NCBI RefSeq assembly: GCF_988243305.1 | Contig: NZ_OZ547136.1 | Strand: one strand, 5' to 3' | DNA: 64,000 bases | In this document: positions 19,214-39,684 of the stretch, piece by piece | How the letters are laid out: every line of letters begins with the position of its first letter | Numbering within the stretch: position 1 is the stretch's first letter | Notes under the pieces: model-generated | What the model was told of the DNA's origin: nothing | Databases searched by the model: none | What the model saw: only the letters and a program-made list of their open reading frames with translations | Made by a program: the position numbers and the translations under genes

Positions 19214-21196
19214 ATGTCCTTAAAAGGTCTGCGCTTTACGCTGGAGGTTGACGGCCAGGAGCCGGACACCTTTGCAGTGGTGAATTTCAGGTTAATCCAG
19301 AACCAGTCATATCCGTTTGTGATGAGTGTGGATGTTGCCAGCGACTCTTTTATGCAGACGGCGGAGATGCTGCTGGAGAAGAAGGCGACACTGACCATCT
19401 GGCAGGGCGCAGTGGCGCAGCGTTATGTCACCGGCGTGGTGGCGGGTTTTGGCATGCAGGAGAATAACGGCTGGCAGATGCGTTATCACCTGCGTATTGA
19501 GCCGCCGTTATGGCGGTGCGGGCTGCGGCAGAACTTCCGTATCTTCCAGCAGCAGGATATCCGGACGATATCGGCCACGTTACTGAACGAGAACGGCGTC
19601 ACGGAGTGGACGCCGCTGTTTTATGAGGACCATCCGGCGCGGGAGTTCTGTGTCCAGTACGGGGAGTCGGACCTGGCGTTTCTGTCCCGGCTGTGGGCGG
19701 AGGAGGGAATTTTCTTCTTTGAGCGGTTTGCGGCGGACAGTCCGGAGCAGAAGCTGACGCTGTGCGACGATGTGGCGGGGCTGTCACAGGCGGGAGAGCT
19801 TCCGTTTAACCCGGACACATCGACAGGAGCGGAGACGGAGTGTGTCAGTATGTTCCGTTATGAGGCGCATGTCCGCCCGTCGTCGGTGCAGAGCCAGGAT
19901 TACACGTTTAAGGTGCCGGACTGGCCGGGGATGTATGAGCAGCAGGGTGAGAACCTGAACGGACAGCTGGCGCAGTATGAGATATTTGATTATCCGGGAA
20001 GGTTCAAGGACGAGCAGCACGGCAAGGATTTCACGCTGTACCAGATGGGCAGCCTGCGCAGTGATGCGGAAAAGGCCACAGGGCAGAGTAATTCACCGAA
20101 GCTGTGGCCGGGAACGCAGTTTACGCTGACGGGGCATCCGCAGAAGATGCTGAACCGTGAATGGCAGGTGGTACAGAGCATACTGTCAGGAAGCCAGCCG
20201 CAGGCGCTGCACGGCAGCCAGGGGAGAGGAACCACGCTGGGAAATCAGTTAGAGGTGATACCGGCAGACCGGACGTGGCGTCCACGGCTGCAAAGCAAAC
20301 CGAAGGTGGACGGGCCACAGAGCGCCATTGTCACCGGGCCTGCGGGAGAGGAAATCTTCTGCGACGAACATGGCCGGGTACGGGTGAAGTTCCACTGGGA
20401 CCGTTATCACGGGATGACGGAGGCGAGTTCATGCTGGGTGCGGGTATCGCAGGCGTGGGCGGGGCCGGGTTTCGGCAATCTGGCGATACCGCGGGTGGGT
20501 CAGGAGGTGATTGTTGATTTCCTGAACGGCGACCCGGACCAGCCGATAATCATGGGACGGACATACCATGAGGACAACCGTTCGCCGGGGAGTCTGCCGG
20601 GGACGAAGACGCAGATGACGATACGGTCGAAGACCTATAAAGGAAGCGGATTTAACGAACTGCGCTTTGAGGACGCCACAGATAAGGAACAGGTCTATAT
20701 TCACGCGCAGAAGAACATGGATACGGAAGTGCTGAATGACCGGACGACGGACGTGAAGCATGACCACACGGAAACCATTGGTAACGACCAGAAGATAACG
20801 GTGGGGTTGGGCCAGACGGTGAATGTGGGGAGCAAAAAGGAAGGTGGTCATGACCAGAAAGTGACGGTAGCGAACGATCAGCATCTCACGATAAAAAATG
20901 ACCGGCACAAGGTTGTAAATAACAACCAGACAAGCAAGGTGACGGGAACTGATACCGAAGAAGTCGTCAAAAAACAGAGTATTAAAATAGGTGATAATTA
21001 CGAACTGAAAGTTGAGCATGGTACAAAAATCATATCTGGGGACAGTATTGAGCTAATTTGTGGGCAGGGAGAGAGCGGGACTTGTTCCATAAAACTGGAG
21101 AAAACAGGAAAGATAATAATACGGGGGACGGAGTTTCTATTTGAGGCTACCGGTCCTGTAGATATTAAAGGAAAAGATATTCATCTGAACGGATAG
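19214..21196 (+). CDS. vgrG: T6SS spike protein VgrG (TssI), no C-terminal effector extension
   Basis: 660 aa; gp27/gp5-like organisation ending in beta-helix repeats; GGGGGG-type ribosome-binding site upstream. Confidence 0.9.
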   Translation: MSLKGLRFTLEVDGQEPDTFAVVNFRLIQNQSYPFVMSVDVASDSFMQTAEMLLEKKATLTIWQGAVAQRYVTGVVAGFGMQENNGWQMRYHLRIEPPLWRCGLRQNFRIFQQQDIRTISATLLNENGVTEWTPLFYEDHPAREFCVQYGESDLAFLSRLWAEEGIFFFERFAADSPEQKLTLCDDVAGLSQAGELPFNPDTSTGAETECVSMFRYEAHVRPSSVQSQDYTFKVPDWPGMYEQQGENLNGQLAQYEIFDYPGRFKDEQHGKDFTLYQMGSLRSDAEKATGQSNSPKLWPGTQFTLTGHPQKMLNREWQVVQSILSGSQPQALHGSQGRGTTLGNQLEVIPADRTWRPRLQSKPKVDGPQSAIVTGPAGEEIFCDEHGRVRVKFHWDRYHGMTEASSCWVRVSQAWAGPGFGNLAIPRVGQEVIVDFLNGDPDQPIIMGRTYHEDNRSPGSLPGTKTQMTIRSKTYKGSGFNELRFEDATDKEQVYIHAQKNMDTEVLNDRTTDVKHDHTETIGNDQKITVGLGQTVNVGSKKEGGHDQKVTVANDQHLTIKNDRHKVVNNNQTSKVTGTDTEEVVKKQSIKIGDNYELKVEHGTKIISGDSIELICGQGESGTCSIKLEKTGKIIIRGTEFLFEATGPVDIKGKDIHLNG

Positions 21197-21302
21197 TGCA
21201 GGATATAAAACATGGTGATTGTATTTGCTTTATACGCCTGTGAATCACCATTTGTGATTGTTTAAATTAATCATAGCATGACTTATTCAGGAATCAATAA
21301 GC

Positions 21303-22349
21303 ATGATAGAAATGAAAAATAACACACCATTTCCTTTGTTGTCATTTGAAAAATATGGTCGTTATGGTCTTTTGTTTGATGTTATTGCTATTAAAATGTC
21401 ATTGCGAATTAAAAATGGATTTTATGCTGATCTTGCTGAGTTTCAAAAAGAATTGTCCATGTCTGATGAATACTATGGGGAGTCTGAAACAAGTAGTCTA
21501 AAATCTGAAACAGACTTAGTTCTTTGTAAAAGAAATACAGATATTCACGTGACAGGTAGTGCTCATGCCCCTCCAGGGGATAAGTCTAAGTGGAAGGCTT
21601 GTGTGAGGGTTAATAGTTTTTCTAAAGAACTGAGTTTATCTGGTGTCCGCTACTTACAATATGAGCGAAATCGTTGGCAGATGAGCTTACCAGATAAAAT
21701 TATTAATGTTCCTCTACGCTATGAGCTTGCTTACGGTGGTATTTGGCAACCAGATGGTATGGAGAAATTGGTTTTTTCAGCAAACCCTGTAGGTTGTGGA
21801 TATTATCCTGATATTTCTCAACTTAATACAAGTTGTCAATATAAACTCCCACAAATAACCAGCTCTGCTTTGTCAGAAAACGCTACCATTTTTAATGGGG
21901 AATCTGACTTTTTTCAAGGTGTTGGCCCTGTATCTCGATGGTGGAAAAGTCGCCTCCAGTATGCAGGAACCTACAATGAAGTATGGCGTGAAAAGCGCTA
22001 TCCCTATTTGCCGGATGATTTTGATGAGCGGTTCTACAATAGTGCTCATCCGGATATGATATACACGGGGTTTCTCTCTGGCGATGAAAACATCTCTCTT
22101 GAAGGTTTTTTTAAATTTGAACAGGTTGTTAAGACAAAATTGCCAGGTATACGACCTGTACTTATATTAAAAACCAAGCATAATACATCACATATGTTCT
22201 TACCTGTTGCGGATACAATGGTTATCGATTTAAGTCGACAGGAAATATACCTTACCTGGAGATTAACAATACCTGATTTTTTTGGAATGAAAGAAGGAGT
22301 GCTGAGTTGTATTATTCCTGAATGTATAGGGAAAAAATATTATGGGTAA
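21303..22349 (+). CDS. T6SS adaptor-like protein (DUF2169-type suspected from context and size)
   Basis: 348-aa AT-rich ORF immediately downstream of vgrG; 8-nt overlap with the following PAAR-like gene; the family call rests on genomic context, not on a motif I can verify. Confidence 0.45.
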   Translation: MIEMKNNTPFPLLSFEKYGRYGLLFDVIAIKMSLRIKNGFYADLAEFQKELSMSDEYYGESETSSLKSETDLVLCKRNTDIHVTGSAHAPPGDKSKWKACVRVNSFSKELSLSGVRYLQYERNRWQMSLPDKIINVPLRYELAYGGIWQPDGMEKLVFSANPVGCGYYPDISQLNTSCQYKLPQITSSALSENATIFNGESDFFQGVGPVSRWWKSRLQYAGTYNEVWREKRYPYLPDDFDERFYNSAHPDMIYTGFLSGDENISLEGFFKFEQVVKTKLPGIRPVLILKTKHNTSHMFLPVADTMVIDLSRQEIYLTWRLTIPDFFGMKEGVLSCIIPECIGKKYYG

Positions 22350-23382
22350 CTATCATATCGGGGATGGTGAATGTAGATTTAGAGTCGTGTGTTCTTCACC
22401 AGATGTATGTGAAGTAGGAGGTTACAAGGTTCCTTTTGACAGTTACCAGACTTTAGATAGTGAAAGACAGTACAGTTCAACGGTATGGGCGCGTGGATGC
22501 AGAGCTTTAAATGTTGGTTCAGTGATTGCTGGAACTCAAAGTAATGCCGGTAAAGGTGTCATATCCGGTACATCTCAAGGAACGGGTGACTGTGTTATTT
22601 TAACGGGAAGTCCGACTGTAACAATAGAAGGGAAACCTGTTGCTTATCATGGTTCAGTTGTTGGGATTAATAACCATAACTGCCTTGGTAAATTGTATAC
22701 CAAAATAAAATCACCAATGATTTCTGTCATTGATAAAACTTTTAGTTATGAAAGGACTGCTGAAGTAATACACGATTTACTGCTTCTGAAGGATCTCCTT
22801 TCTGTTGGGAATATTTTGGGCGGAGATATTTCACCTGAGGTTAAAAATGATTTATTTCAAATAAAAGATCCTGACCAATCATGGGGGGAGTTTTTTTCAA
22901 TAAAGAATATCAGAGAATCTCTCAGGAATGGTATTGAAGGAGATAAATCTCAGATCAGAGAATGGTTTGGAGAGAACACACTTACTCAAATGGGCAATGG
23001 AGCAATCACCACTTTACATGGTGTGGCGGATTTAGCCTTAGTTACATTCGATGCTCTGTTAGATACGGCAACGGCAACGGTTGCTTGCCCGATAGGCGAA
23101 GATGGGTTATGTGAACAGGCAAATATAAATTTAAATGAAAAAGAACAGGCTTTATTTAATATTAGTAATTCATTGATAAATGGGCAAGCATGGGATGCAC
23201 TTAAAAAAATGATAATGGATACAAATAATGGTGATCAGATTGCTCTGGAGCATTTTGCCAGCTTTTTATGGGGCTTTATGATACCCGCAAAAATACCAGA
23301 AGAAAATATCTCTGGGAAAGTATTTGTAGAGCCAGTAGTTTTAGAAGGTGGTGCTGGTGGCAATTGGACAGTATTTGATTAG
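22342..23382 (+). CDS. PAAR-like (DUF4150-type) T6SS spike-tip protein with C-terminal extension
   Basis: N-terminus CRFRVVCSSPDVCEVGGYKVPFDSY...GDCVILTGSPTVTIEGKPVAYHGSVV resembles PAAR-like DUF4150 domains; 346 aa; ends at a TAG that is in frame with the next ORF. Confidence 0.65.
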   Translation: MGNYHIGDGECRFRVVCSSPDVCEVGGYKVPFDSYQTLDSERQYSSTVWARGCRALNVGSVIAGTQSNAGKGVISGTSQGTGDCVILTGSPTVTIEGKPVAYHGSVVGINNHNCLGKLYTKIKSPMISVIDKTFSYERTAEVIHDLLLLKDLLSVGNILGGDISPEVKNDLFQIKDPDQSWGEFFSIKNIRESLRNGIEGDKSQIREWFGENTLTQMGNGAITTLHGVADLALVTFDALLDTATATVACPIGEDGLCEQANINLNEKEQALFNISNSLINGQAWDALKKMIMDTNNGDQIALEHFASFLWGFMIPAKIPEENISGKVFVEPVVLEGGAGGNWTVFD

Positions 23383-23409
23383 GTTTTAGATTCAAATGTA
23401 ATAAAGCAA

Positions 23410-23781
23410 TTGACTTTAACAGGCTGTGGAGCGGCCTGTGGGGAAATGTTGCTTAGGGATAGGTATATTTTTGTCACGCAAAATGTAATTGGAACAGAAT
23501 TAACATCTATGACGTCGCTGGCAAACAAGCTTAATAAATTTGATGTCGGCTGGGAAGGGAATGAAGTGAGCGAATCTAGTTTATATGCCCTCAGTAATAC
23601 TGGTTCATGGGGAGCAATGATGTGGGATTCTGGAAGTAAAGTAGGGCATTGGGTACTTGTTAAGGGTGTTGATGATGCTGGGAATGTGATAATATATGAT
23701 CCATATCAAGGGAGTCGATATCTGATGACTGAACAGGAATTTAAGGAGGTATGGAATGGGCATAGTGTTTACAAACCATAA
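23410..23781 (+). CDS. Papain-fold (C39-like) cysteine peptidase domain, candidate toxin domain; possibly the 3' part of a disrupted PAAR-toxin fusion
   Basis: Candidate catalytic motifs CGAACGEM (Cys), GHWVLVKG (His), IIYDPYQG (Asp); same reading frame as 22342..23382 with only one TAG between them; ORF-track start is a TTG. Confidence 0.5.
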   Translation: MTLTGCGAACGEMLLRDRYIFVTQNVIGTELTSMTSLANKLNKFDVGWEGNEVSESSLYALSNTGSWGAMMWDSGSKVGHWVLVKGVDDAGNVIIYDPYQGSRYLMTEQEFKEVWNGHSVYKP

Positions 23782-24046
23782 TATTGATTTGTTATCGGTT
23801 GAATTTGATGAGATTACAAAAAATTGTAATTACACTTTTAGTGTAGATGGAGAGACGGCTATCTTTACTGCTAGAATATCAATAATAAGAAATATAAAGG
23901 GAATTAAATATAGCGAAGAACTTGATAAATTTATAATGTCAATAATGCCATTGCAGCCTAAAGTATCAAAAATTTTGGGAGGTGTTACTTGGGATTGTAT
24001 TTGTGGTAAGGAAGTTGGATTTCCTGTGAGATTAATTGGTAAGTGA
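23756..24046 (+). CDS. Small protein, candidate cognate immunity protein
   Basis: 96-aa ORF whose ATG overlaps the last 26 nt of the peptidase-domain ORF; no signal peptide; AT-rich. Confidence 0.35.
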   Translation: MGIVFTNHNIDLLSVEFDEITKNCNYTFSVDGETAIFTARISIIRNIKGIKYSEELDKFIMSIMPLQPKVSKILGGVTWDCICGKEVGFPVRLIGK

Positions 24047-24303
24047 AGGGTGGTGAGGTATTTCTATATTTTTTTTCGTGAAAGTCTTTAAAACTAAAAT
24101 TATCTTGTTGGGAGCCCAAGGTGAGATCATAAAACGTATTATTTTATAAATATTGTTATGCAGGGAAAGGTCAAGTAATGCTGCTTTTTTGTACTAAATA
24201 ATTCGCATTTTATGTTCAATAATTGAGGTGTTCCTTATTACCTAAAGCTGTTTTTCATTGCTTATACATGATCAAATACTCATTGCATAATTAAGGGGGC
24301 AAA

Positions 24304-25250
24304 ATGGAACTTAAAAAATTGATGGAACATATTTCTGTTATCCCCGATTACAGGCAAGCCTGGAAAGTGGAACATAAATTGCCAGATATTCTATCTGTTA
24401 ACTATTTGCGCCGTTATTTCTGGTGCATAAGGCTGGGAAGATATAGAGGATTTGGGGAAACACATCTCGATTTTTTGAAGTGATATGGTGATTTTGAAAA
24501 TGGTATTCCTGTTCACGATATCATTGCCAGAGTTGTATCCTGTATCAGTCCTGCAAAATTTTACGAGTGCTTTATTAACTGGATGCGTGACTGTCATTCT
24601 TCAGATGATAAAGACATCATCGCAATTGATGGAAAAACGCTCCGGCACTCTTATGATAAAAGTCGTCAAAAGGGAGCAATTTATGTCATTAAAATCCGTC
24701 TTCATATTGTTTGCATGTCTCTGATGAATTTATTGATTTTACGTTTGAATGGAAAGGGCTGAAGAAATTATGCATGGCAGTCTCATTTCGCTCAATAATA
24801 GCAGAACAAAAGAAAAATCCCGAAATGACGGTCAGATATTATAGCATTTCTGCTGATTTAACCGCAGAGAAGTTCGCCACAGCGAACCGAAATCACTGGC
24901 AAGTGGAGAATAAATTGCACTGGCATCTGGACGTGGTAATGAATAAAGACGACTTCAAAATAAGAAGAGGAAATGCAGCAGAATTATTTTCAGGGATACG
25001 GAAGATCGCTATTAATATTTTAACGAAAGATAAGATAATCAAGGCAGGGGCAAGATGTAAGATGTGAAAAGCAGCTGCGGACAGAGACTACCTCGCGTCA
25101 GTCCTTGCGGGGGCGGGCTTTCGTAATCTTGTTCTGCAAGGGATGATAAAAAGTGCAACTTTATTCCACGCAGCTATTTAGACAGCGTACAGTAAACAAA
25201 CGAAAGTTGTTATTTCAATGGTCAGGGCAAGAGCATGAAGTGTTTACTAC
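24304..25250 (+). mobile_element. Degenerate ISAs1-family (H-repeat) element with disrupted transposase
   Basis: N-terminus [26 protein letters not shown]... and C-terminal fragment ...[27 protein letters not shown]...[17 protein letters not shown]... match the ISAs1/H-repeat transposase from memory; frameshifts and an internal deletion are evident; right boundary approximate. Confidence 0.7.
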
Positions 25251-25295
25251 ACACTATGCTCTTGTCCTGGAGTCAGGTCTTGTCTGGAGGGATAA

Positions 25296-25799
25296 ATGGT
25301 AGATATTGTCGAGGCCGATAAAACGGATATTTATTTCATTCAGGAGAGTGTTTATGGCAAAATCGGGTTGCCAGCTTTGGGTAATACAATAGGACCATCC
25401 GCACAGCAAGTTGTTAAAAAGGTATTCGCTGTCGTTAAAGAACGAGATAAGACACATGCAAAACAGAGATTATTGTTGGAATATAATGGTAACAAACTCT
25501 GGATGAATGCTATTGATGGCAGTGAAGCTATCCTACCAACAGAATTTTCTAAGCGGTACGAACTTTCATTATTCAATACTACTAATTTTGGAGAAGATCC
25601 TTTTCCTGATGTTAATTTATATAATAATATGAAATCAAGTTTTTTTGTAAGGTTTGGTGGAACATCCCATCCCGAGGCTTGGGCTATTTATAATGCAAGT
25701 ACGAAAGAGGTTAAATATATAGAAACTGCAAGAGAAATTGATAAAATATTCAGTGATTTTAACTTGAGTGGTACATTGCCAATTCACATTGGTCAATGA
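25296..25799 (+). CDS. Hypothetical protein (cassette gene 1, unknown function)
   Basis: 167-aa ORF with GGAGGG ribosome-binding site 5-6 nt upstream of the ATG; no signal peptide; AT-rich; flanked by ISAs1 remnants. Confidence 0.4.
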   Translation: MVDIVEADKTDIYFIQESVYGKIGLPALGNTIGPSAQQVVKKVFAVVKERDKTHAKQRLLLEYNGNKLWMNAIDGSEAILPTEFSKRYELSLFNTTNFGEDPFPDVNLYNNMKSSFFVRFGGTSHPEAWAIYNASTKEVKYIETAREIDKIFSDFNLSGTLPIHIGQ

Positions 25800-25864
25800 T
25801 TTTTAAATTGTGTGATTAAATAATTGAACATTAATGATGATTTATAGCATCATTATTCTATAAC

Positions 25865-26377
25865 ATGAATAAACGGATTGAATGTGTTATGTTAAAAATG
25901 AGTTTATACGTAATAATATTGTTATTTTCCTTTCAGATTAGTGCAGCCATTACTAGCAAGGAAAGTGAGGTTGTTTCACCATTATTAATGGATGTTAATT
26001 CTTCACTAACAATGGAAAATATATCTGAATTATCCACATCATCGGAACCATCGCAACAGGGGGTATTTCCTGTAATATGTACTCGACTTCATCCTGGCTC
26101 CGTAATGAAACGCCAGTTATTAACCGGCTGGGGGCCTGTTTTTATAATTGGTGATGATCCTTTTTCTCTGCGCTGGATGAGTGAACATCTGGAGATCCTT
26201 AAATCGCTAAATGCCCTTGGTTTGGTTGTTAATGTTGAATCAGTAGAACGAATGGAGGTATTACAGCAGCGGGCTGATGGGTTATTGTTATTGCCAGTTA
26301 TCTGCGATAATTTCGTGCAAACTCTGCAATTAAATGCTTATCCGGTATTAATCACAGAGATGGAAATATCACAATGA
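25865..26377 (+). CDS. Hypothetical exported protein (cassette gene 2, unknown function)
   Basis: 170-aa ORF; signal-peptide-like segment MSLYVIILLFSFQISAAI; true start may be an internal ATG at 25889 or 25898. Confidence 0.4.
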   Translation: MNKRIECVMLKMSLYVIILLFSFQISAAITSKESEVVSPLLMDVNSSLTMENISELSTSSEPSQQGVFPVICTRLHPGSVMKRQLLTGWGPVFIIGDDPFSLRWMSEHLEILKSLNALGLVVNVESVERMEVLQQRADGLLLLPVICDNFVQTLQLNAYPVLITEMEISQ

Positions 26378-26409
26378 TTAATAACATAATTACTGCAAAT
26401 AATATCGTA

Positions 26410-26612
26410 ATTTTGAAAATGGTAATCCTGTTCACGACACCATAATTAGAGTTATGTCTTGTATCCGTTCAGTATAATTTCACGAATGCTTTATTAACTG
26501 GATGCGAGATTGCCATTCATCAAATGATAAAGACGTCATCGCAATTGATGGAAAAGCGCTTCCACACTCCTATGATAAAAGTGGTCGCAGGAGAGCGGGC
26601 TTTCGTAGTCAT
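26410..26612 (+). mobile_element. Second, shorter ISAs1 (H-repeat) transposase remnant
   Basis: About 180 bp at roughly 85% identity to 24491-24672 (encodes ...FENGNPVHDT...[29 protein letters not shown]...), joined directly to H-repeat 3'-end-like sequence (GGGCTTTCGTA). Confidence 0.6.
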
Positions 26613-26648
26613 ACCCCGACTCTCCCCAGCCCTAAACACAACCCCCAC

Positions 26649-27419
26649 TCACCACAACCTAAACTCATCCGCATCCCGCCATGCCGGAAACTTTTCTCTA
26701 TACTCCCGCAACGCCATCATCGACAGCTCCGCATCAATGCGCGTTGCCTGATGCGCGTCGGCAGTAGCGATAATCTCGCCTTGCGGATTAATCACCCGGC
26801 TGTCACCACGATAATGGCAGCCGTTGCCATCGCTGCCGACGCGATTGCATCCCGCCACATACGCCTGATTCTCAATCGCGCGGGCTGTCAGCAATGCCTG
26901 CCAGTGCAGAGAGCGCGGAGCAGGCCAGTTGGCGACGTACAGGGCGAGGTCATAATCGTTGAGATTGCGCGACCACACCGGAAAACGTAAGTCGTAGCAC
27001 ACCAGCGGCAAAATACGCCAGCCGCGCCATTCCACAATCACTCGCGCATTGCCCGCTTTATAATGTAGATGCTCATCTGCCATGCGGAACAGATGACGCT
27101 TATCATAAAAATGTACCGTGCCGCCCGGCTCAACCAGCAAAAAGCGGTTAACCGAACCAGACTCCGTTTGTAATGCAACACTGCCTGCAATCAGCGCATT
27201 GCACTGCTGCGCTTTGGCTGTCATCCAGTTCACTACGTCATCTTGTGCTAGCGACGAAGCTGCCGCTTCCATGGCAAAGCCGCTGGTAAACATCTCCGGT
27301 AGAACGATCACATCGCGTCCGGTAATACCTTCCAGTTGACGATCAAAATGACGCAGGTTGGCAGGACCATCCATCCACACCAGTGGTTGCTGCAAAAGCG
27401 TAATCTTCAAACCAGGCAC
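26649..27419 (-). CDS. yafV: Omega-amidase (nitrilase-family C-N hydrolase) YafV
   Basis: Protein matches E. coli YafV as recalled; ORF track start 27428; probable start 9 nt downstream. Confidence 0.85.
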
Positions 27420-33225: not shown

Positions 33226-33984
33226 ATGTCCTTCATGTCTTCGTTCTTGCTCGGCAGATTTCTGCATCCAGGCGTGTTTTCGTTATGCGTTTTGCTCCCT
33301 TTACTCGCCAGCGCCACCACATCACATATCTCATTCAGCTACGCCGCCCGCCAGCGGATGCAAAACCGTGCGCGTTTATTAAAACAGTACCAAACCCATC
33401 TGAAAAAACAGGCCAGCTATATTGTGGAAGGCAATGCCGAAAGCAGAAAGGCGCTGCGCCAGCACAACCGCGAACAGATAAAACAGCATCCAGAATGGTT
33501 TCCTGCGCCGCTCAAGGCGAGTGACAGACGCTGGCAGGCGCTGGCGGAAAACAACCACTTTTTAAGCAGCGACCATCTGCATAACATCACCGAAGTGGCG
33601 ATCCACCGCCTGGAGCAGCAGCTTGGCAAGCCTTACATCTGGGGCGGCACGCGGCCTGATAAAGGCTTTGACTGTAGCGGGTTGGTTTTTTATGCCTACA
33701 ACAAGATCCTCGAGGCGAAACTCCCACGCACGGCTAATGAGATGTATCACTATCGCCGGGCAACCATTGTGGCGAATAACGACCTGCGCCGGGGAGATTT
33801 GCTGTTTTTTCATATCCACAGCCGCGAGATTGCCGACCATATGGGCGTGTATCTGGGCGATGGACAGTTTATTGAGTCGCCGCGCACCGGGGAAACCATA
33901 CGGGTAAGTCGGTTAGCTGAACCTTTCTGGCAGGATCATTTTTTAGGCGCGCGCAGGATTTTGACGGAAGAGACGATTTTGTAG
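33226..33984 (+). CDS. yafL: NlpC/P60-family lipoprotein YafL
   Basis: 252 aa; NlpC/P60 motif GFDCSGLVFYAY plus downstream His; matches YafL as recalled. Confidence 0.8.
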   Translation: MSFMSSFLLGRFLHPGVFSLCVLLPLLASATTSHISFSYAARQRMQNRARLLKQYQTHLKKQASYIVEGNAESRKALRQHNREQIKQHPEWFPAPLKASDRRWQALAENNHFLSSDHLHNITEVAIHRLEQQLGKPYIWGGTRPDKGFDCSGLVFYAYNKILEAKLPRTANEMYHYRRATIVANNDLRRGDLLFFHIHSREIADHMGVYLGDGQFIESPRTGETIRVSRLAEPFWQDHFLGARRILTEETIL

Positions 33985-34081
33985 GACGGCAATACTGCGA
34001 AAAAGTTAAAGTCGTACACGTTTTTCTCCCTCTCCCCAAAGGGGCGAGGGGACAGTCCGAGACCTTATATAGTCTCCCCCA

Positions 34082-35821
34082 TCAACTCAACGCCCCCATA
34101 ATCTTCAACTCCAGCTCGTCCGGCACTTCGTTATACGACAGCACATGCAGCCCCGGCGCAAACAACCTTGCATAACGCGCCAGCAAAGGACGCAACTGCG
34201 GCGGCACCAGCAGCACCGGGTCTTTCCCCGCCGCTTTCATCTGCTCTTTTACCTGCGGCATCGTACTCTGGAACTGGTTGAGCATATTCGGATCGACCGG
34301 CACGCTGTCGAGCATCACTTTCCCGCCCTGTTGCGCCTGATTCACCACGTTGGTCAGCAGATTTTCCAGTTCATTATTCAGCGTATACACCGCCAGCTCC
34401 TGCTTGCGAACGAACGGATGGGTAATGCTGCGCCGCAATGCCAGGCGCACATCGGCCGCCAGCAGGATATGATCTTTGGTCACTGTGCTACTGGCGACCA
34501 GCACGGTGGCGATGGTGACGATATCGCGCAGGGAAACGCCTTCGGTCAGCAGCGCCCGGTACACTTTCAACAACTGGCTGTAATTGAGTGCCGCGCTCAA
34601 ATCTTCCGCCAGCCGTGGTGCCATCGATGACAGGCGATTGTGTAACTGCGTGATGTCGTCATAGTTAAACAAATCAGGAATATAGCTGCGCACAATCTTG
34701 TTCACATGGGTGGCAATCACGCTGGCGCTGTCGATCACCTGATACCCCATATTCAGCGCCTTCGCCTTCTGCGCGGGCTGGATCCAGGTGACCGGCATCC
34801 CGTACGCCGGGTCGTTCCCCAGCACGCCGTCTATCTCGCCGTAGGTTTCGCTGGAGGGCAGCGCCATCAGTTTATCCGCCGGAATATCCGCTTCATCGGC
34901 CTTAATGCCGTTGATGAATATGGCGTACTGGCTGGGCTTGAGGCGGAAGTTTTCCCGAATGCGGATCTCCGGCAGCAGCACGCCGTTGCCGTCAGAAATC
35001 ACCTGCCGCACGCCGCGAATTCGCTGGGTGAGCGGGTTGCCCTGTGCTTTGTCCACCAACGCCACCAGCTTGTAGCCGAGACTTAAACTGATAGGCTCGA
35101 TCAGCGGAATGGTTTCCCAACTGACCTGTTGCTCGCTGGTTTCGGTGATAGTCCGGGTCAGCGTTTCGAGGCTTTTCTCTTCTGCCTCCGCCGCCTGCGG
35201 GCGTTTGCTCATCCGCCAGCCGGTAAAACCCAACAGGGCGCTGAACAGCAAAAACGGCAGATGCGGCATCCCCGGCACCACCGCCAGCACAAACATGATC
35301 CCGGTGGCGGTGTAGAGCACCGACGGGCTTGCCAGCAGCTGGTGGCGCACGTCATGGGCGATATCGCCGTTGTCGCTGACGCGGGTGACGATAATTGCCG
35401 CCGCGGTGGAGAGCAGCAGGGACGGGATCTGCGCCACCAGGCCGTCGCCGATGGTCATCAGCACATATTGCTGGAAGGCGGCATCGGCGCTCAGGTTGTA
35501 TTTGAAGATCCCGATACAGACGCCGCCGATCAGGTTGATCGCCAGAATCATCATCCCGGCGATGGCGTCCCCGCGCACAAACTTCGATGCCCCGTCCATT
35601 GCGCCGTAGAAATCAGCCTCGCTGGCAACATCTTTACGCCGGGTTTGCGCCTGCGCCTGGTTGATCAACCCGGCGTTAAGATCGGCGTCAATCGCCATCT
35701 GTTTGCCGGGCATCGCGTCCAGGGTAAAGCGGGCAGAAACCTCGGAAATACGCTCGGCCCCTTTGGTGACGACAATAAAGTTGATTGTCAACAGCGTCAG
35801 TAAATCCGAGCGTGAAAGCAT
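34082..35821 (-). pseudogene. lfhA: lfhA: 5'-truncated Flag-2 flhA homologue (promoterless fragment)
   Basis: 579-aa ORF homologous to FlhA from about residue 110 onward (...FIVVTKGAERISEVSARFTLDAMPGKQMAIDADLNAG...); lacks the FlhA N-terminal transmembrane region. Confidence 0.75.
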
Positions 35822-39129: not shown

Positions 39130-39684
39130 ATGGGCAAATATATTCGTCCCTTATCCGATGCGGTATTTACCATCGCATCTGATGACCTGTGGATCGAGAG
39201 TTTAGCGATTCAACAATTACACACCACGGCAAATTTACCCAACATGCAGCGCGTAGTAGGGATGCCAGATTTACACCCCGGACGCGGCTACCCGATTGGC
39301 GCAGCGTTATTCTCTGTTGGTCGTTTTTACCCGGCAAGACGTCGCGGTAACGGTGCTGGAAACAGAAACGGGCCGCTACTCTGACACGCTGCGTTCGGCG
39401 CTGATTTCTCTGGATGGCGATAACGCATGGGCATTAAGCGAAAGTTGGTGCGGCACTATTCAGTGGATTTGTCCGAGTCCGTATCGGCCTCATCATGGGC
39501 GCAAAAACTTGTTTCTGGGCATGCTAACAAGCGGCTGGCGCGATTGCTGATTGCCTGGAAGCTGGAACAACAGCAACAGGAAAATAGCGCGGTGCTGAAA
39601 TCGCGGCGGCGAATGTTCCATCACCAGATTGAACGTGGCAACCCGAGACGGACATTTACAGGGATGGCTTTTATCGAAGGATAA
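39130..39684 (+). pseudogene. ykfJ'/prfH' remnant: RtcB N-terminal fragment followed by fragmented release-factor-H homologue
   Basis: Three short overlapping ORFs in different frames: RtcB-like N-terminus (...[25 protein letters not shown]) and PrfH-like pieces (...[48 protein letters not shown]). Confidence 0.5.

Follow-up and report, generated by a model that had tools for sequence, protein, structure and literature searches.

The stretch analysed here (hereafter the window) comprises 64,000 nucleotides (nt) of contig NZ_OZ547136.1 from RefSeq assembly GCF_988243305.1, and this report concerns positions 21303-24046, where four tightly packed genes follow the vgrG gene of an Escherichia coli type VI secretion system (T6SS). 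All features described lie on the plus strand. The vgrG gene itself (19214-21196), which encodes the T6SS spike protein of 660 amino acids (aa), is intact: it matches TIGR03361 (E 5.7e-182), is full length without internal stop and aligns with the annotated Vgr gene of E. coli S88 and ATCC 11775. A gap of 106 nt separates its stop codon from the first of four open reading frames (ORFs), namely ORF1 (21303-22349, 348 aa), ORF2 (22342-23382, 346 aa), ORF3 (23410-23781, 123 aa counted from a TTG) and ORF4 (23756-24046, 96 aa). ORF1 and ORF2 overlap by 8 nt, ORF3 and ORF4 by 26 nt, and the G+C content is 0.34-0.40 over 21000-24500, compared to 0.50-0.62 in vgrG and hcp. The initial annotation of this DNA had described four tightly coupled AT-rich ORFs after vgrG, and its coordinates, the overlaps and the base composition were all borne out. 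The similarity searches and alignments reported below identify the region as the E. coli T6SS-1 cargo module vgrG/DUF2169/cpe1/cpi1, with an amber codon inside the effector gene cpe1 and an unchanged immunity gene cpi1.

ORF2 and ORF3 share one reading frame. In the translation of 22342-23784 they are parted by a TAG codon, the sequence running ...GGAGGNWTVFD, then the stop, then VLDSNVIKQLTLTGCGAACGEM..., and together they correspond to cpe1 (22342-23781), a 479-codon gene with a single internal stop, the amber at codon 347. The match to WP_000528852.1, the Cpe1 protein of S88 and ATCC 11775, extends over the full length with 98.7% amino acid identity, the stop being counted. The encoded protein begins with a PAAR-like (DUF4150 or 'PIPY') spike-tip domain (residues 15-115, 22384-22686) that had already been recognized in the initial annotation and that the Pfam check supported through Tox-PAAR-like (PF13665, E 1.4e-11); the match to PAAR_motif is weak (0.0024). 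The 230 residues that lead from the tip domain to the toxin are not a mere spacer. Indeed, a phmmer search aligned residues 189-346 to residues 27-184 of PDB 8SSK_A (E 2.4e-32), which points to a middle domain (22906-23346) homologous to the cytoplasm-entry domain of StbD-CT, a contact-dependent inhibition toxin considered further below. The GGAGGNW motif is identical in both proteins. It contains the GGAGG linker of Cpe1 (G336-G340, 23347-23361), with G336-G337 encoded at 23347-23352, and G337 lies 25 residues before C362. By its register with StbD-CT, Cpe1 likely cleaves itself after G337.

The C-terminal part of the gene (23383-23778) encodes a C39-type papain-like cysteine peptidase, the toxin domain Cpe1tox (residues 348-479). 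In a PDB sequence search, 131 of its 132 residues were identical to chain A of 9L5U (E 9.3e-88), and in the joined translation of ORF2 and ORF3 residues 352-474 matched positions 3-124 of the 133 positions of Peptidase_C39 (PF03412, E 7.9e-6). Both results, which like the Pfam matches to Tox-PAAR-like and DUF2169 exceed by far what chance would give, agree with the papain-fold peptidase and the Gln/Cys/His/Asp arrangement that had been proposed from the letters alone. With the numbering read through the stop, these residues are Q356 (codon 23407-23409), C362 (23425-23427), which is the published catalytic cysteine and the first Cys of CGAACGEM, H436 (23647-23649), which aligns with His258 of StbD, and D453 (23698-23700), which aligns with Asp275 of StbD. 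Moreover, the window has C362, L387, M390, M426, W428 and V434 at exactly the positions given for them in the publication. A canonical role of the C39 domain in bacteriocin processing was considered and rejected, as no ABC transporter is adjacent and the domain forms the C-terminal part of a T6SS tip protein of the PAAR-like type.

The initial annotation had let the reading frame of ORF2 continue into the peptidase. The frame is indeed the same, but it is interrupted by the in-frame TAG at 23380-23382, and the range that had been given for the peptidase (23383-23781) begins immediately after this stop. Alignment to S88 and ATCC 11775 attributes the TAG to a G-to-T substitution at 23380 that replaces a GAG codon (Glu347). 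In both reference strains cpe1 is a single gene of 479 codons, so that carrier and toxin, which share one intact ORF there, are divided in the window by TAG in the place of GAG. ORF2 and ORF3, which had been listed as separate ORFs, are hence the two halves of a normally single gene split by a nonsense mutation. The same alignment counted 13 substitutions across the three module genes. Among these, a C-to-A change at 23564 (GCA to GAA, codon 23563-23565) results in A408E, in the hydrophobic exosite of the peptidase, where A408 is one of the residues listed by Song et al. (PMC12136450). The 61-base stretch carrying the G-to-T change at 23380 has an exact match in two of 332 complete E. coli genomes, and the 61-base stretch carrying A408E matches exactly in the same two, which were sequenced independently and come from China (chicken) and from Korea (human). 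In addition, the exact 346-aa truncated product was found on 185 public contigs. Because the stretch recurs in two independent genomes and the truncated product is present on so many contigs, we consider the amber mutation to be real and inherited, and, judged from these alignments, the cpe1 of the window is a disrupted allele of the gene that typifies its family.

Could the peptidase part still be translated by itself? Between the TAG and the codon of Cys362, the sole in-frame start is the TTG at 23410. For the 20 nt upstream of this codon, the predicted duplex with the anti-Shine-Dalgarno sequence has only -0.1 kcal/mol, compared to a regional median of -2.9, and a product starting there would lose residues 348-356, including Gln356. 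The start chosen by PGAP for the remnant is the ATG at 23446 (M369), and its product would be catalytically dead because it begins after Cys362. Neither of these two products would be attached to the spike. Thus, by its predicted starts, the peptidase remnant is without a credible initiation codon that would keep both Gln356 and Cys362.

The module is already known. A megablast search of positions 21200-24100 against all complete E. coli genomes (n = 5426) recovered it in 335 of them, always on the chromosome and in one copy each, and 324 of these copies were at least 99% identical to the window. In several matching genomes RefSeq names the two genes 'cpe1: cysteine protease effector protein Cpe1' and 'cpi1: cysteine protease immunity protein Cpi1', and a public protein collection lists the pair as CPE1_ECOU5 and CPI1_ECOU5. 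NCBIfam hidden Markov models (HMMs) matched none of the four cargo proteins; the RefSeq names probably come from a rule not based on HMMs, and this null result is probably no argument against the identification. From these matches the locus is identified as cpe1-cpi1 with its DUF2169 chaperone, as described from E. coli ATCC 11775 by Song et al. (PLoS Biol 2025, PMC12136450). The window module occupies the same site as in that strain, flanked by vgrG/DUF2169 on one side and by an ISAs1 remnant adjoining yafV on the other, with 99.5% nucleotide identity over 2.9 kb. Compared to the Cpe1 of ATCC 11775, the window allele differs by E347amber and A408E, as well as by four substitutions in the linker that follows the PAAR-like domain (R132K, N135S, F159L and D160G).

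Song et al. solved the crystal structure of Cpe1tox with Cpi1 at 1.87 Å (9L5U) and found the nearest structural relatives of the toxin in ComA and LahT, namely in their C39 peptidase domains (PMC12136450). According to the same authors, the C362A mutation abolishes both toxicity and T6SS-dependent competition, and the substrates are GyrB and ParE, which are cut at the Gly-Gly of the LHAGGKF loop in the ATPase domain (G101/G102 in GyrB, G97/G98 in ParE). Protection by Cpi1 involves not the active site but a hydrophobic exosite formed by L387, M390, A408, M426, W428 and V434 (PMC12136450). EvpQ of Edwardsiella and a survey of polymorphic toxins from 2012 are cited there as antecedents. The literature thus already covers the effector family with its structure and targets, the mechanism of immunity and the accessories of delivery, and the biochemistry used here is taken from those publications; the gene identities, the mutation and its frequency were observed directly. 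The initial annotation had presented the module as novel, with a C39-like T6SS toxin belonging to no described family. This claim does not hold in view of the Cpe1-Cpi1 study of 2025 and of a protein of the same architecture, TsaP, reported in 2023.

The last gene of the module is cpi1 (23756-24046), whose product of 96 aa is identical at 96 of 96 positions to PDB 9L5U chain C, 'Cpi1' (E 3.6e-62), in keeping with the proposal that the small overlapping ORF encodes the immunity protein. The alignment with ATCC 11775 and S88 found no nucleotide difference within cpi1. Its Shine-Dalgarno sequence, AAGGAGG (23743-23749), is located inside the 3' end of cpe1 and forms a predicted anti-Shine-Dalgarno duplex of -13.4 kcal/mol, again to be compared with the regional median of -2.9. 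Other damaged copies of the module were encountered in E. coli. AR_0017 (locus L006, 1239-3932) harbors a cpe1 split by an IS3 element together with an intact cpi1. In O145 RM9872 (locus L005, 1957-4197) the 5' part of cpe1 has been deleted together with the 3' end of vgrG; there, at another place on the chromosome (yncG...pptA), a truncated vgrG is followed directly by a C39 remnant devoid of Cys362 and then by cpi1. Both strains encode a Cpi1 (WP_000513317.1) identical to that of the window. As read from these gene arrangements, independent decay of cpe1 has occurred in other E. coli lineages, with cpi1 kept intact.

Three groups of relatives help to place Cpe1. TsaP of the extraintestinal pathogenic E. 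coli (ExPEC) strain RS218 was described as a PAAR domain (1-324 bp) and a C39 domain (1041-1437 bp) joined by a middle part (324-1041 bp), and its toxicity on expression was confined to the C-terminal part (Lu et al., Microbiol Spectr 2023, PMC10434152). Its described architecture and length are those of the window gene, and the C39 boundary at 1041 bp corresponds to codon 347 here, the likeness being one of architecture only. The TsaP study defined neither substrates nor an immunity protein, unlike the Cpe1 study. A more instructive relative is StbD-CT, which together with StbI constitutes a CdiA-like contact-dependent inhibition system of Citrobacter rodentium (PDB 8SSK, 8SSM and 12AJ; preprint 10.64898/2026.05.07.723447). 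In StbD-CT the N-terminal part serves for entry into the cytoplasm, in a manner dependent on YajC, and the toxin processes itself after Gly158 of a Gly-Gly pair, 25 residues before the catalytic Cys183, a self-cleavage of the linker that is needed for intoxication (preprint 10.64898/2026.05.07.723447). The same preprint notes that Cpe1 shares the self-cleavage site and the entry domain, and proposes YajC-dependent import and redox-controlled self-cleavage of Cpe1 by analogy only; it also confirms independently, for the homologous StbD-CT, the cleavage of GyrB and ParE. The Gly-Gly target site in GyrB and ParE is the same for both toxins. In our comparisons the C39 domains (E 3e-44) as well as the entry domains (E 2.4e-32) are homologous, the GGAGGNW linker is identical and the immunity protein of StbD-CT is related to Cpi1 (8SSM_C, E 6e-9). 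However, the sequence identity of the two toxins is moderate rather than near-complete, and their delivery differs, StbD-CT being carried by a CdiA-like two-partner secretion protein and Cpe1 by a PAAR-like T6SS tip. Finally, the C39 maturation proteases of ABC transporters (ComA, LahT; PF03412) are N-terminal exporter domains that process leader peptides of the double-glycine type, whereas the C39 domain of Cpe1 is devoid of any ABC-transporter fusion and serves as an interbacterial toxin acting on topoisomerases.

ORF1 (21303-22349) had been called adaptor-like, a proposal confirmed by Pfam: residues 27-320 of its 348 match positions 7-294 of the 294 of PF09937 (DUF2169, E 2.7e-71), and RefSeq labels the equivalent proteins 'DUF2169 family type VI secretion system accessory protein'. 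Only two substitutions, S91P and Q96K, distinguish it from the copy of ATCC 11775. DUF2169 genes strictly co-occur with vgrG and with DUF4150 ('PIPY') tip domains, and their products are chaperones required to form a functional VgrG-DUF4150 spike, the PIPY motif being the hydrophobic patch to which they bind (Sachar et al., JBC 2025, PMC11883445). In the window the gene is likewise encoded between vgrG and the DUF4150 gene starting at 22342, which reproduces the order vgrG, DUF2169, DUF4150-toxin of the published spike complexes, with strong Pfam matches for the accessory and tip domains alike. Unlike the tips of that study, the window tip contains no literal PIPY string; the nearest candidate by eye is KVPFDSY (residues 28-34), which has one proline compared to two in PIPY. 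An exact-sequence look-up of 21303-22346 also assigned the DUF2169 protein and Cpe1 to one cluster at 90% identity. Unrelated proteins would not be expected to group in this way, and the result may have arisen artificially from ORFs fused or wrongly called over the 8-nt overlap.

When intact, Cpe1 is a protein of 479 aa composed of a PAAR-like (DUF4150/PIPY) tip, an entry domain resembling that of StbD-CT, the GGAGG linker and the C39-type peptidase. The DUF2169 chaperone would help to mount the PAAR-like domain on the VgrG spike, and once delivered, the peptidase cuts GyrB and ParE at the conserved Gly-Gly of their ATPase domains, so that DNA supercoiling and chromosome segregation stop. Cpi1 shields the producer by occupying the hydrophobic exosite beside the active site, in competition with the substrate. 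The layout of adaptor, PAAR-toxin and immunity gene that had been recognized initially is thus retained in the arrangement of the genes, but the amber has probably left this strain without a functioning terminal T6SS toxin. The strain would rather make a 346-aa carrier consisting of the PAAR-like domain, the entry domain and the linker without the toxin, next to a peptidase remnant that would have no credible start, no link to the spike and the A408E substitution in its exosite. Since cpi1 is unchanged and possesses its own strong ribosome-binding site, immunity to the Cpe1 of relatives would persist, and the truncated tip protein may still serve in the assembly and firing of the otherwise intact T6SS.

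The T6SS-1 cluster is complete and adjoins yafV/ivy/fadE, and all 13 of the 13 core genes as well as hcp and vgrG are full length and free of internal stops. Because of the amber, the want of a usable restart, the intact core genes and the unchanged cpi1, we read the strain as one whose T6SS-1 works but whose tip protein lacks the toxin. Very probably, it has lost the delivery of Cpe1 and kept immunity to the Cpe1 of its relatives, with the toxin-less tip maybe still used by the secretion system; we infer the loss of toxin function, the retained immunity and the retained capping of the spike alike. Some points weigh against this reading. Low-rate read-through of the amber may yield traces of full-length Cpe1, split arrangements are not non-functional in principle, and the exosite mutants made by Song et al. 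were L387, M426 and W428, A408 not being among them (PMC12136450).

One alternative, a sequencing or assembly error in an otherwise intact gene, might be suggested by the fact that about 330 other genomes differ from the window at the stop by one base only; we rejected it and regard it as effectively refuted, the same base being present in the Chinese chicken and Korean human genomes, the truncated protein on the 185 contigs and the linked A408E showing the same distribution of two in 332. Read-through of the amber at a level that matters biologically, which would make the allele attenuated rather than null, is quite unlikely. The rest of the frame is open and encodes a toxin domain only one substitution away from the crystallised protein, and a strain that still had some need of immunity might well retain cpi1 with its strong translation. 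Amber read-through is, however, normally rare in wild-type E. coli, and the window offers no evidence of a suppressor. The retention of cpi1 is equally well explained by protection against relatives armed with Cpe1, and cpi1 has also been kept where an IS3 element or a deletion destroyed cpe1. A408E may moreover weaken any full-length product further.

We judge it still less likely, indeed very improbable, that the split gene works as such, the peptidase being made alone, for instance by re-initiation at TTG 23410, loaded non-covalently and delivered. This codon lies in frame only 27 nt past the TAG, and its product would keep Cys362, His436 and Asp453. The stop is also only 10 codons past the predicted self-cleavage site, so that the remnant resembles the toxin fragment that cleavage would release, and toxins of the papain-like cysteine protease (PLCP) type encoded by separate genes downstream of their carriers exist in other species (PMC12136450). 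On the other hand, the TTG has no Shine-Dalgarno sequence, its product would lack the segment with Gln356, the exosite carries A408E and the sole PGAP call is the ORF from M369 without Cys362. Furthermore, a locus 99.5% identical to the fused gene would have had no time to evolve a docking interface. A bolder proposal is that the amber may have created a naturally split effector out of a fused one, with the carrier still capping the spike and with a peptidase that is translated on its own, or through read-through, and still delivered; in a milder version, the lineage is an 'immune but disarmed' cheater that fires a toxin-less tip. We hold this proposal to be unlikely. If the first version were true, the allele would be a snapshot of the origin of toxins encoded by separate genes, and if the milder one were, the 185 public contigs would represent a successful lineage that keeps its T6SS firing in spite of being disarmed.

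What the loss of toxin delivery, with immunity retained, would add to the published system is a natural E347amber and A408E allele of cpe1 in a strain whose T6SS-1 is otherwise intact and whose cpi1 is unchanged. Together with the IS3-disrupted and deleted alleles found elsewhere, it would represent a recurrent loss of the weapon with the shield kept, which bears on the turnover of T6SS arsenals in E. coli. A408E, for its part, is a natural variant suited to probing the published exosite model.

Several observations concern the surroundings of the module. Between cpi1 and yafV, positions 24304-26990 form a stretch of low G+C content (0.30-0.42), which begins with a frameshifted remnant of an ISAs1 transposase (about 24304-25067). 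It also encodes an ORF of 167 aa (25296-25799), for which Pfam and NCBIfam searches returned no match, and an integrating-conjugative-element protein of the PFL_4695 family (25865-26377; TIGR03765, E 2.2e-35), and a second ISAs1 fragment starts at about 26500. The annotation of S88 and ATCC 11775 presents the same arrangement between cpi1 and yafV. A scan for terminators found sites no more numerous than in shuffled sequence and none after cpi1, and a promoter scan counted 23 sites compared to a shuffle mean of 14.4, an excess that we take to reflect the AT-rich sequence, both scans being uninformative.

Further downstream, the comparison with S88 at 39130-39681 matched rtcB at residues 1-69 only and prfH as two fragments only (residues 26-95 and 149-204), which suggests that the rtcB-prfH pair has been deleted or has decayed in this strain. 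The interval between yafL and lafU (33981-35766) also differs from that of S88, as the rayT gene of S88, encoding a REP (repetitive extragenic palindrome)-associated tyrosine transposase, had no tblastn match in the whole window. The T6SS-1 cluster upstream of the module (53-21193) is a mosaic with regard to its identity to S88: TssC and Hcp are 100% and TagH 99.3% identical, whereas TssA, VasI and TssH reach only about 93% and VgrG 96.5%, a pattern that suggests recombination within the cluster.

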